From: Escherichia coli
GTDB lineage: Bacteria > Pseudomonadota > Gammaproteobacteria > Enterobacterales > Enterobacteriaceae
DNA: 931 nt
Strand: one strand, 5' to 3'
Assembly: GCF_003334255.1 (NCBI RefSeq)
Contig: NZ_QOWU01000183.1
This document shows positions 3-931 of the stretch, piece by piece. A program made the translations under genes and the position numbers. The notes beneath the pieces are model-generated. The model ran no database searches. It had not been told where the DNA came from and saw nothing but the letters and a program-made list of their open reading frames with translations. Positions within the stretch are counted from its first letter, which is position 1; every line of letters begins with the position of its first letter.

Positions 3-931
3 ATGGCAATGATGGCGGATCGCTACTTCACCACCAAAAAGGACGGCAAAACTTACTACATTAAACTTCATGATCCGCGCCTGATGCGTGCGATGAAGAA
101 CATGGGGCCGGAAACCAGTAACGCCGTAATCCGTACGCTGGGGAAAGTTAACCGCTTCCTGGCAACGGTGAACACGTCGTATAACCCGGAATTTCTGGTC
201 AGTAACTTCATCCGTGACGTGCAGACTGCGGTGATGAACCTGAAGGCTGAGCAGGGAAGGAGCGACGGTAAACTGAAAGAGCTGGATAACTTATCCGCGC
301 TGGCTGTGGTGAAAGACAGCCGTTCCGCCATGTCAGCCGTATACGCCAGTCTGCGGGGTAAAACCCTCACGGGCAAAGGCGCACAGTGGCAGAAAGTGTG
401 GAAAGAGTTTGTTGAGGACGGAGGTAAAACCGGCTGGTTTAACATGGGTGACCTTGAGGGCCAGCAGAAGGAAATGGATCGCCTTGTGTCGCTGGCGAAG
501 GGCGGATGGAAAGGCCAGAGTATCGGTGCATGGCATTCGTTCCTGAACCTGGTCGAGGATGCCAACGGCGCGGTTGAAAACGCTCTGCGTCTTTCTGCCT
601 ATAAACACGCCCGTGATGCCGGTTTGTCACGCCAGCAGGCGGCGTCTCTTGCCAAAAACATGACGGTGAACTTTAACCGTCGTGGTGAGCAGGGGATGCT
701 GATGAACTCGCTGTACATGTTTGCCAACGCCAGCATTCAGGGGACCGCAAACCTGGTGAGAACGCTCGGACATCTTAATGGCGACGGGCCGTTACCGGAG
801 CGCCTTCGCTGGAAGAATCTCAATGTACCGCAGAAAATCGTGCTTGCAGCTGTGGGAGCGGGTTATCTGCTTGGCTCGCTTAACCGCAGTGTGGCGGGTG
901 AGGATGATGACGGGGTTAACTGGTACGACAA
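3..931 (+). CDS. Partial CDS for a hypothetical protein of unknown function (309 codons visible; 3' end truncated by the window, 5' end undetermined). Translation begins MAMMADRYFTTKKDGKTYYIKLHDPRLMRAMKNMGPETSNAVIRTLGKVNRFLATVNTSYNPEFLVSNFIRDVQTAVMNLKAEQGRSDGKLKELDNLSALAVVKDSRSAMSAVYASLRGKTLTGKGAQWQKVWKEFVEDGGKTGWFNMGDLEGQQKEMDRLVSLAKGGWKGQSIGAWHSFLNLVEDANGAVENALRLSAYKHARDAGLSRQQAASLAKNMTVNFNRRGEQGMLMNSLYMFANASIQGTANLVRTLGHLNGDGPLPERLRWKNLNVPQKIVLAAVGAGYLLGSLNRSVAGEDDDGVNWYD...
   Basis: Seen in sequence: + frame 3 is open from nt 3 to the window end with no stop, while + frame 1 stops at nt 10-12 (tga) and + frame 2 stops within the first ~90 nt (taa). Codon choice is typical of highly used enterobacterial codons, and the translated protein has a plausible globular composition. 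The supplied ORF track omits it, presumably because it has no stop inside the window. Function is not assigned: I cannot run a homology search and do not recognise a diagnostic motif. Confidence 0.85.
   Translation, partial: MAMMADRYFTTKKDGKTYYIKLHDPRLMRAMKNMGPETSNAVIRTLGKVNRFLATVNTSYNPEFLVSNFIRDVQTAVMNLKAEQGRSDGKLKELDNLSALAVVKDSRSAMSAVYASLRGKTLTGKGAQWQKVWKEFVEDGGKTGWFNMGDLEGQQKEMDRLVSLAKGGWKGQSIGAWHSFLNLVEDANGAVENALRLSAYKHARDAGLSRQQAASLAKNMTVNFNRRGEQGMLMNSLYMFANASIQGTANLVRTLGHLNGDGPLPERLRWKNLNVPQKIVLAAVGAGYLLGSLNRSVAGEDDDGVNWYD

Follow-up and report, generated by a model that had tools for sequence, protein, structure and literature searches.

The N4-type virion RNA polymerase of the Schitoviridae is a protein of more than 3,000 aa that is packaged in a podovirus head and ejected (Iyer et al. 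2017). A giant protein of the short-tailed Shiga-toxin (Stx) phage phi24B, gp47, was detected in purified virions by proteomics and proposed to be an ejection protein (bioRxiv 10.64898/2026.04.10.717836). The same preprint reports that gp47 was not resolved in either the symmetric or the asymmetric cryo-EM maps of phi24B and that the internal tail contents are lost on ejection. In the Escherichia phage PTXU04, knock-down of a protein with the LPD38 domain blocks efficient infection (bioRxiv 10.1101/2023.09.18.558157). Our literature search found no statement about the giant protein in earlier virion proteomics of 933W-type phages, and no report of its delivery into the cell.

The DNA analysed here, which we call the window, is a stretch of 931 nucleotides from Escherichia coli. 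Translation of the window in frame +3 gave 309 sense codons at positions 3..929 and no stop. At a GC content of 0.55 and a stop probability of 0.044 per codon, an open run of this length has a chance of about 1e-6, and none of 20,000 shuffles of the window kept the frame open. The GC content of the three codon positions (0.59/0.41/0.65) is typical of coding sequence, and 83 of the 95 columns that vary among eight compared alleles fall on codon position 3 of the + frame. The ORF list for the window (entries of at least 60 aa) holds only minus-strand frames, at 68-565, 333-608 and 439-630; the lister omits ORFs that are open at either end of the source, and the + frame is open at both. The original prediction, that the real gene is an unlisted + strand frame filling the window and that only minus-strand ORFs had been listed, was thus correct on both points.

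The longest entry in that mechanical list is a frame of 165 aa on the minus strand (68..565). Its third codon positions take 44 of 49 substitutions, and it matches a single PHROG family, phrog_23348 (E = 2e-78). The codon-position test (83/95 against 44/49) does not discriminate between the strands because the antisense frame shares the wobble positions of the gene, so that the third-position pattern of the minus ORF is inherited. The frames were therefore separated by synonymous and non-synonymous counts and by frame integrity in distant homologues. Over the same columns the ratio of synonymous to non-synonymous changes was 15:12 for the minus ORF and 19:5 for the + frame. In homologues from Vibrio, Bacillus and Pelagibacter phages stops divide the antisense frame into stretches of at most 80 aa, whereas the + frame is open with 25-40% protein identity; the 165-aa ORF is not the conserved one, the outcome that would have refuted the original prediction. 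A 53-aa antisense match to a Vibrio phage (E = 2.5e-8) reflects, on the opposite strand, a motif of the + frame that is strongly conserved. The phrog_23348 profile has 129 positions, the same length as the antisense ORF-29c (129 aa) annotated inside the giant gene, and the family appears to consist of antisense ORFs over-annotated within that gene in old records. With the + frame running on for 2,794 codons, we see virtually no prospect that the minus ORF is the real gene and the + frame open by chance. The breakage in distant homologues refutes it as a gene, and we classify it as a shadow ORF. The annotation is thereby settled: the gene lies in the + frame, and each of the three minus-strand ORFs on the list is a shadow.

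The window is 100% identical at the nucleotide level to an intact 8,385-nt CDS of E. coli SCU-104 (WP_174147770.1, 2,794 aa). The match lies at 12001-12931 of locus L001, inside the CDS at 5490-13874, and encodes residues 2172-2480. RefSeq names the SCU-104 protein 'LPD38 domain-containing protein'. Positions 3..929 (+ strand) are thus an internal coding segment, codons 2172-2480 of a gene of about 2,794 codons for a giant polyvalent/virion protein. Bases 1-2 and 930-931 are parts of the flanking codons in the same frame and strand. The ATG at 3-5 is the internal Met2172; the intact gene has 2,171 codons upstream and 314 codons downstream of the window. As predicted, the window thus covers an inner part of a longer protein, whose 3' end is indeed absent; the claim that at least the 3' end is missing was incomplete, since the 5' end is absent too. 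The window matches phrog_616 (E = 6e-214) over profile positions 2171-2479 of 2793, and its counterpart in phi24B, vb_24B_48 (ADN68472.1), shows 97.4% identity in the window region and 92% overall. We take vb_24B_48 here to be gp47 of the 2026 preprint. All 186 near-identical matches in the phage collection were to Stx-type or related Escherichia/Shigella phages, and distant protein homologues of the window were found in Vibrio, Ralstonia, Bacillus and Pelagibacter phages. Judged by these sequence matches, the window gene is the giant late-operon protein of the short-tailed Shiga-toxin phages (Sepvirinae; PHROG 616; RefSeq 'LPD38/LPD5 domain-containing protein'). In both the SCU-104 prophage and phi24B it closes the late/structural region, preceded by lom and five small conserved ORFs. 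The gene is already known, being annotated in RefSeq and discussed in two papers. Rfam and repeat scans of the window gave nothing meaningful.

The Escherichia prophage GER2 (MG710528.1) is also 100% identical to the window, and no other record in the phage collection reaches 99% identity; no feature is annotated over the match. GER2 is a prophage delimited by PHAST, not a demonstrated infectious phage (PMC6113874). Its copy of the giant frame is split into ORFs of 1,332 and 1,450 aa around a 523-aa IS66 transposase (E = 1.4e-141), corresponding to an insertion of about 2.7 kb at about codon 1334 of the intact gene, and the window falls in the 3' remnant. If GER2 is the source of the window, the gene would be a dead fragment in the window's genome, split by the IS66-family element and making nothing functional. 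The uniqueness of the GER2 match and its interrupted frame make this a serious possibility, but we lean against it: three E. coli genomes (SCU-104, UCPROB-001 and UCPROB-002) have intact copies that match the window just as perfectly, with 100% identity. Moreover, this reading bears on the condition of a single copy and leaves the coding content of the window sequence untouched.

Pfam places four domains in the intact protein: LPD5 at 1051-1200, LPD1 at 1361-1440, MuF_C at 1750-1840 and LPD38 at 2477-2682. LPD38 (PF18857) was found with E = 1.1e-48 at 683-888 of a C-terminal chunk of 1,000 aa that starts at residue 1795. HExxH motifs are present at residues 1284 and 1551, and an NCBIfam scan of the whole protein detected a CLCA_X-like zincin region at 1182-1437, outside the window and below the curated cut-off. 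The protein thus combines several effector-type/LPD domains (LPD5, LPD1, MuF_C, LPD38 and the two HExxH motifs) in one polypeptide, as is characteristic of polyvalent proteins. MuF-C is the PBECR, an RNase-like domain, in the naming of Iyer et al. 2017. No Phage_Mu_F match to the portal-associated N-terminal domain of MuF was obtained, MuF_C (PF18819) at 1750-1840 being the sole MuF match and lying outside the window; membership in the MuF/SPP1 gp7 head protein family is thus not supported.

The protein divides into two parts. The N-terminal 1,890 residues or so are variable and hold LPD5, the zincin-like HExxH region with LPD1, the second HExxH motif and MuF-C. The C-terminal 900 or so (about 1890-2794) are constant, and the window is their mostly helical middle third. 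Of 148 representatives, 12-50 cover the sequence before residue ~1890 and about 140 the sequence from there on. An exhaustive search of representative proteins matched the window to 7,797 of them, with lengths from roughly 650 to 5,181 aa, and the match always stops about 310 aa short of the C terminus. The architecture was taken from this search; a separate search for homologous proteins returned only fragments of at most 540 aa. An alignment of 28 sequences, termed A1, was the basis of the conservation lists given below. LPD38 occurs in all 28 aligned members, and their N termini differ (InPase, ART-PolyVal, LPD1, LPD5). Structural matches in BFVD span the whole module with TM scores of 0.6-0.85, to proteins named LT_GEWL, RelA/SpoT and methylase. 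The constant unit is therefore carried by thousands of phage 'polyvalent' proteins with varying N-terminal domains. The window alone has no Pfam match, LPD38 beginning at its last four codons, and Pfam models nothing over two-thirds of the 900-aa unit. No solved structure in the PDB resembles the window or the constant unit.

In the AF2 model 203 of the 309 window residues, about two-thirds, are in predicted helices. Together with the 186 near-identical phage matches, this bears out an initial weak impression of a large helical protein from a phage or other mobile element. The features that follow all lie on the + strand. At 24..68, YFTTKKDGKTYYIKL forms the last two strands of the small β-sheet insertion of the constant unit (AF2 strands at module positions 296-300 and 303-309); the Gly at nt 45-47 of this sequence is invariant and is G302 in the alignment. 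Conserved motif 1, NTSYNPEFLVSNFIRDVQTA...E (171..251), contains the invariant or near-invariant window residues P62, F64, N68, R71, D72, A76 and E83. Motif 2, N-x-AVENALRLSAY (564..602), lies inside the long helix at 507-617, with N188, E192 and R196 as its invariant or near-invariant residues. Motifs 3 and 4, AASLAKNMTVNFNRRGE and LYMFANASIQGT, occupy 639..746; the C-terminal end of the 'DarB-like' family phrog_10089 also has its match here.

A conserved, moderately hydrophobic helix, QK-IVLAAVGAGYLLGSL-NR, follows at 831..887 and corresponds to the AF2 helix at module positions 562-585. It is one of only two hydrophobic peaks on the Kyte-Doolittle scale in the 2,794-aa protein. Its family-mean Kyte-Doolittle value is 1.15, exceeding 1.2 in 14 of the 28 sequences, and the pattern is kept in all 28. 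Judged by this profile, the helix is a candidate membrane-inserting or buried helix. Directly after it comes the nearly invariant acidic motif GEDDDG (897..914), whose D588 is near-invariant in the alignment. The window closes with the start of LPD38 at 918..931 (protein residues 2477-2682), of which about four residues lie within the window and most lie beyond it.

We consider it probable that the giant Stx-phage protein of which the window is a segment is packed in the capsid and ejected, with the C-terminal unit as carrier and the N-terminal domains as cargo. That the window might encode part of a structural or injected phage protein had been put forward in the original prediction, and it agrees with the virion proteomics of phi24B, whose protein is 97% identical over the window. 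The giant protein would be packed inside the capsid and would leave through the tail at infection, probably injected with the DNA. The constant unit would supply the shared functions: it would take the protein into the head and out again, and would probably touch or cross the cell envelope, with the hydrophobic helix as its candidate membrane element. The N-terminal domains would be a cargo that can be exchanged and that works on the host soon after infection begins. The coding frame, the identity of the gene, the place of the window in the protein, the domain layout, the constant nature of the unit and its predicted fold are shown by the present analysis; the literature contributes the virion presence of the 97%-identical orthologue and the need of a distant family member for infection. 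That the protein is ejected, that the unit acts in packaging and as a carrier, and that the helix works at the membrane are inferences. Also in favor are the structural relation to the PTXU04 protein, the position of the gene at the end of the late region and the gp16 slot of the Pelagibacter phage homologue.

A protein that is in the virion yet unresolved in the symmetric and asymmetric maps, and that is large and helical, could also be an internal head protein of the inner-body or DNA-organising type, which would stay in the capsid to aid genome packaging or pressure management. We think this improbable. The N-terminal domains are enzyme-like and variable among relatives, and such domains must reach the host to make sense; the reported loss of internal tail contents on ejection also argues against retention.

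Ejection as a carrier with cargo has a second competitor, in which the protein chiefly serves counter-defence, as an accessory effector of the type of DarB of phage P1, and its C-terminal unit is only a capsid-targeting or packaging tag, with no conduit and no crossing of the envelope. The family phrog_10089, 'DarB-like antirestriction', matches residues 183-262 of the window with its C-terminal end (E = 4.6e-12), Iyer et al. 2017 read polyvalent proteins as early-phase counter-defence effectors, and relatives carry ART, RelA/SpoT, methylase and InPase domains. This view is unlikely in our judgment. Pfam and NCBIfam scans of the whole Stx-phage protein showed neither a helicase nor a methyltransferase domain, and assignment to the DarB-like antirestriction family was rejected because the phrog_10089 match covers the shared C-terminal unit only. 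A highly conserved, structured unit of 900 aa is more than a simple tag should require. Efficient infection of a laboratory host depends on the PTXU04 member, a dependence that is unusual for a purely anti-defence accessory, and in a T7-like phage the slot of gp16 is taken by a homologue.

A stronger form of the carrier reading is that the ~900-aa unit is a previously undescribed ejection/translocation device of podoviruses, with a fold unrelated to the T7 gp14-16, P22 and N4 systems. It would open the route through the envelope by means of the hydrophobic helix and GEDDDG and would be a universal carrier for swapped N-terminal effectors, comparable on the viral side to the delivery of polymorphic toxins. 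We offer this tentatively, as a possibility that we rate well below the general carrier reading; the invariant polar residues of the window could then be the catalytic or gating site of such a device. If the unit does act as an ejection/carrier device, it would explain how DNA and effector domains cross the cell envelope in the Sepvirinae, GP4-like and many marine podophages, and would point to a way of checking the spread of Stx phages. The Shiga-toxin-converting phages that carry the gene are the most widespread ones, and the gene family has thousands of representatives.

The closest relatives of the window's protein are the Sepvirinae orthologues (phi24B vb_24B_48, Stx2 phage I ORF-30, PHROG 616), which are the same gene in the same order at the end of the late region and have the domains LPD5, LPD1, MuF_C and LPD38 in common with it. 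The differences are allelic only, apart from the interruption of the GER2 copy by the IS66-family element. As to the N4-type virion RNA polymerase, no RNA polymerase domain and no similarity to that protein was seen in any search. The P1 DarB-like proteins (phrog_10089) are a giant, virion-delivered family, but share with the Stx-phage protein only the C-terminal unit and not the helicase/methyltransferase domains.

T7 gp16 (internal virion protein D, an ejection protein) is also large and internal in the virion. It has an N-terminal lytic transglycosylase according to its record annotation, as do some relatives of the module by their BFVD names; the Stx-phage protein, unlike gp16, has no such domain. 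Alignment A1 gave hhalign probabilities of 0.05% against gp16 and 0.4% against gp15, phmmer and hmmsearch runs against the PDB returned nothing, and no fold similarity to solved ejection-protein structures was found. In the T7-like Pelagibacter phage Lederberg, nevertheless, the genes before the homologue encode an internal virion protein of gp14 type and a 589-aa protein, and the gene after it is that of the tail fibre; this position is the gp16 slot. This gp16-type gene position is seen in the Pelagibacter phage homologue; in the Stx phages the giant gene instead lies downstream of the tail fibre and lom genes.

Among the LPD38 polyvalent proteins described by Iyer, Burroughs, Anand, de Souza and Aravind (2017), PTXU04_00025 is likewise giant and multi-domain, with a C-terminal LPD38 and virion genes adjoining. 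The N-terminal domains of this group differ from member to member. Pfam and the 2017 description cover about 190 residues (LPD38) of the ~900-aa unit, and the 300 residues encoded by the window are without a named domain. The whole ~900-aa C-terminal unit is structurally conserved between PTXU04_00025 and the Stx-phage protein (TMq 0.64, E = 1.4e-22).

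Translation of the + strand from window position 3 to 929 gave 309 sense codons and no stops, the uninterrupted frame put forward in the original prediction. A frame of this length would stay open by chance with a probability of about 1e-6 at the window's GC of 0.55 (per-codon stop probability 0.044), and it was closed in every one of 20,000 shuffles. GC content by codon position in the frame is 0.59/0.41/0.65. The list of ORFs of at least 60 aa contains minus-strand entries only, at 68-565 (165 aa), 333-608 (91 aa) and 439-630 (63 aa); the real frame is missing from that track because the ORF lister omits ORFs that run off either end of the source. 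Scans of the window for repeats and Rfam families were negative, without a family close to threshold.

The window shows 100% identity to Escherichia phage GER2 (MG710528.1, 81044-81974), in which no feature is annotated at the match, and 92-98% identity to a further 185 Stx-type phage records in the phage collection. Of the 5,426 complete E. coli genomes, 426 carry a match, and RefSeq, among the matches listed, names the product 'LPD38 (or LPD5) domain-containing protein'. The gene is intact in E. coli SCU-104, where it has 8,385 nt and 2,794 codons and is the last of a prophage adjoining yfdC. The window encodes residues 2172-2480 of this giant protein, so both protein ends lie outside it. 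Hence the earlier description as an internal piece of a larger protein holds, but the 5' end is missing as well as the 3' end, and the ATG at window 3-5 is an internal methionine. The translation aligned with positions 2171-2479 of the 2,793-position profile of PHROG 616, a family of unknown function (E=6e-214). That the window is part of a giant phage gene is almost certain. The gene falls into both the Sepvirinae giant late proteins (PHROG 616) and the phage-type LPD38 polyvalent proteins, the testable defining features of each being present. It is not a new gene: RefSeq annotates identical proteins, a description of the family dates from 2017, and work of 2026 detected an orthologue in virions.

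The 165-aa minus-strand ORF at 68-565 matches phrog_23348 (129 positions, 'unknown function'). In the old Stx-phage record AP004402 the giant ORF-30 is annotated together with small overlapping ORFs. The antisense ORF-29c of that record (L003 554-943) has 129 aa, the exact profile length of phrog_23348, and similar antisense ORFs, 50c-52c, occur in the phi24B record (L015 32192-35769). On these grounds phrog_23348 appears to consist of over-annotated antisense shadow ORFs inside the giant gene of early Stx-phage records, and is probably not a real protein family. Among 8 alleles, variable columns fall on codon position 3 at 83 of 95 for the + frame and at 44 of 49 for the minus ORF, counts that cannot separate the two since the antisense frame has the same wobble positions. 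Over the same columns, the ratio of synonymous to non-synonymous changes is 19:5 for the + frame versus 15:12 for the minus frame. The + frame is also open in distant homologues from Vibrio, Ralstonia, Bacillus and a Pelagibacter phage (40, 33, 26 and 25% protein identity, respectively). The antisense frame is broken into pieces of at most 80 aa in three of these four; the exception is the Ralstonia phage, in which several frames are free of stops. It is the + frame that is conserved, not the 165-aa ORF as the original prediction had allowed for; the latter is a shadow ORF, and the substitution counts together with the broken antisense frame leave practically no room for its being the gene.

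A Pfam scan of the giant protein in three overlapping chunks located LPD5 at residues 1051-1200, LPD1 at 1361-1440, MuF_C at 1750-1840 and LPD38 at 2477-2682. Metallopeptidase activity has been assigned to MuF-C in a phi24B preprint (10.64898/2026.04.10.717836), and the same domain has been read as the RNase-like PBECR domain (PMC5512222). A sub-threshold NCBIfam match to the zincin-like CLCA_X covers residues 1182-1437. Two zincin-type HExxH motifs, both in the variable N-terminal part, were also observed: one at residue 1284, within the CLCA_X-like region (about 9339-9353 of L001, the SCU-104 prophage region), and one at residue 1551 (L001 about 10140-10154), in a region common to about 50 of 148 relatives. 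The window follows MuF_C and precedes LPD38, reaching the latter with its last four codons only, and a Pfam scan of the window alone gave no match.

When the window was searched exhaustively against 1.84 billion cluster representatives, 7,797 proteins matched at E<=1e-3, including 1,542 at E<=1e-30. These proteins range from roughly 650 to 5,181 aa, and in nearly all of them the match stops about 310 residues short of the C-terminus. By BLAST, residues 1-1850 of the Stx-phage protein are covered by only 1-50 of the best 148 representatives, and residue ~1890 to the end by about 140-148 of them. In an alignment of 28 homologues of this C-terminal part, LPD38 is present in all 28 and no member has a Pfam family over the window-equivalent region, while the N-terminal domains differ (InPase, ART-PolyVal, LPD1, LPD5). 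From the jump in coverage and this domain layout, the protein contains a constant unit of ~900 aa that is inherited as a block (L001 11142-13871), of which LPD38 makes up about one-fifth and the window the middle third. The LPD38 model (189 positions) covers residues 2477-2682 only, and the ~590 residues upstream of it, including the whole window, have no domain model. Invariant or near-invariant window residues, several of them polar, include N68, R71, D72, E83, N188, E192, R196, R226, N242 and Q246.

An AlphaFold2 model of residues 1885-2794, built from the 28-sequence alignment, had a mean pLDDT of 80.2 and a pTM of 0.77. It is mostly α-helical with one small β-sheet, and 203 of the 309 window residues are predicted to be helical. 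With the Stx-type phage matches, this bears out a weak initial impression of a large helical protein from a phage or other mobile element. PDB sequence and profile searches with the unit were empty, and no solved structure resembled it (best Foldseek E-value 0.27). Among predicted viral structures there were 70 significant matches over the whole unit (TM 0.6-0.85), including a polyvalent protein of phage PTXU04; others carry the names LT_GEWL, RelA/SpoT or methylase, which derive from their N-terminal domains.

The 2,794-aa protein has only two hydrophobic peaks, at residues 180-207 and 2446-2468. The latter, inside the window, is a predicted 24-residue helix. Its pattern (window 831-914) is Q-K/R, ~18 small or hydrophobic residues and N-R, followed by a nearly invariant acidic G-E-D-D-D-G. 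Most of the 28 aligned sequences preserve the pattern, the most distant ones in degenerate form; it is conserved between E. coli and Vibrio phages and degenerate in the homologues of the Ralstonia, Bacillus and Pelagibacter phages. The family mean Kyte-Doolittle value of the helix is moderate, at 1.15. The helix and GEDDDG could serve in membrane insertion, in metal binding or as a processing site. Together with the ~900-aa extent of the unit and its lack of a fold relative in the PDB, this family-wide element goes modestly beyond existing annotation.

In GER2 (L002) a ~2.7-kb IS66-family element (L002 about 6789-9484; transposase ORF 6818-8389 on the minus strand, E=1.4e-141) interrupts the giant gene near codon 1334, leaving ORFs of 1,332 and 1,450 aa, with no CDS annotated over the gene in MG710528.1. 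A stretch of about 14 bases from the intact gene (L001 9487-9500) aligns to both flanks of the insertion. GER2 was delimited as a prophage by PHAST rather than demonstrated to be an infectious phage (PMC6113874), and it is quite conceivable, though not the favored view, that the window sequence is a dead fragment in its source genome. Against this, intact copies identical over the window occur in three E. coli genomes; a dead fragment would in any case be compatible with the main explanation. The GER2 'attR' (L002 57-68) is placed upstream of phage genes clearly of the late region, and the record extends ~5 kb beyond the giant gene (L002 13875-19071); the PHAST-derived boundaries probably differ from the true prophage ends. 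In SCU-104, the tail fibre genes are separated from the giant-gene cluster by genes for an outer-membrane protein of the Ail/Lom family and a toxin of the Hok/Gef family (L001 1107-2213). Ahead of the giant gene are five small conserved ORFs (133, 218, 148, 83 and 420 aa), one with a weak match to the 'virion structural protein' phrog_8003 (E=7.6e-9).

Polyvalent proteins were defined in 2017 as proteins of several domains for which packaging together with the DNA, and delivery with it, is predicted; LPD38 was found in phage-type members only (PMC5512222). The phi24B protein gp47 (2,811 aa; LPD5, LPD1, LPD38 and MuF-C) was found by proteomics in purified virions, is not visible in cryo-EM maps, and was proposed to be packed in the capsid and to act as an ejection protein (10.64898/2026.04.10.717836). 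We take vb_24B_48, annotated with 2,807 aa in GenBank, to be gp47, because no other protein in the phi24B record is of that size; it has 97.4% identity to the window translation, 92% identity overall and the same gene order. CRISPRi-ART knock-down of the PTXU04 LPD38 protein (2,198 aa), which has the same fold as the constant unit by structure match, impairs infection (10.1101/2023.09.18.558157).

We consider it fairly probable that the window belongs to a giant protein that is made late, incorporated into the capsid and, we infer, exits through the tail at infection. The constant unit, window included, would supply the shared functions of incorporation, exit and envelope interaction or passage, with the hydrophobic helix and acidic motif as a candidate membrane-active element, and the variable N-terminal domains would be carried as cargo acting on the host. 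Our analysis contributes the gene identity, the position in the protein, the modular constancy, the predicted helical fold and the helix conservation; the literature contributes the orthologue in virions and the distant member required for infection. An internal head protein that is not ejected seems very improbable.

In the T7-like Pelagibacter phage Lederberg (L013 4483-10464), tail tubular A and B are followed in turn by a small ORF, a phrog_418 internal virion protein resembling gp14, a protein of 589 aa, a 1,254-aa homologue of the unit and the tail fibre. This order corresponds to gp11, gp12, gp13, gp14, gp15, gp16 and gp17 of T7 (L014 1729-8552), which places the homologue in the gp16 slot. 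Such synteny speaks, with the size and conservation of the unit and the PTXU04 phenotype, against a pure anti-defence effector whose C-terminal unit is only a packaging tag. A partial match to a 'DarB-like' PHROG and the effector-type domains of relatives point toward that alternative, but the helicase and methylase domains that define DarB are absent, and we regard it as unlikely. Membership in the DarB family was rejected for the same absence, and membership in the MuF family for want of the N-terminal domain. Profile comparison with T7 gp16 and gp15 gave no similarity, and membership in the gp16 family was rejected on sequence and fold tests. Tentatively, the constant unit could be a podovirus device of a new type that combines ejection with a carrier function, and the giant protein may work like T7 gp16.
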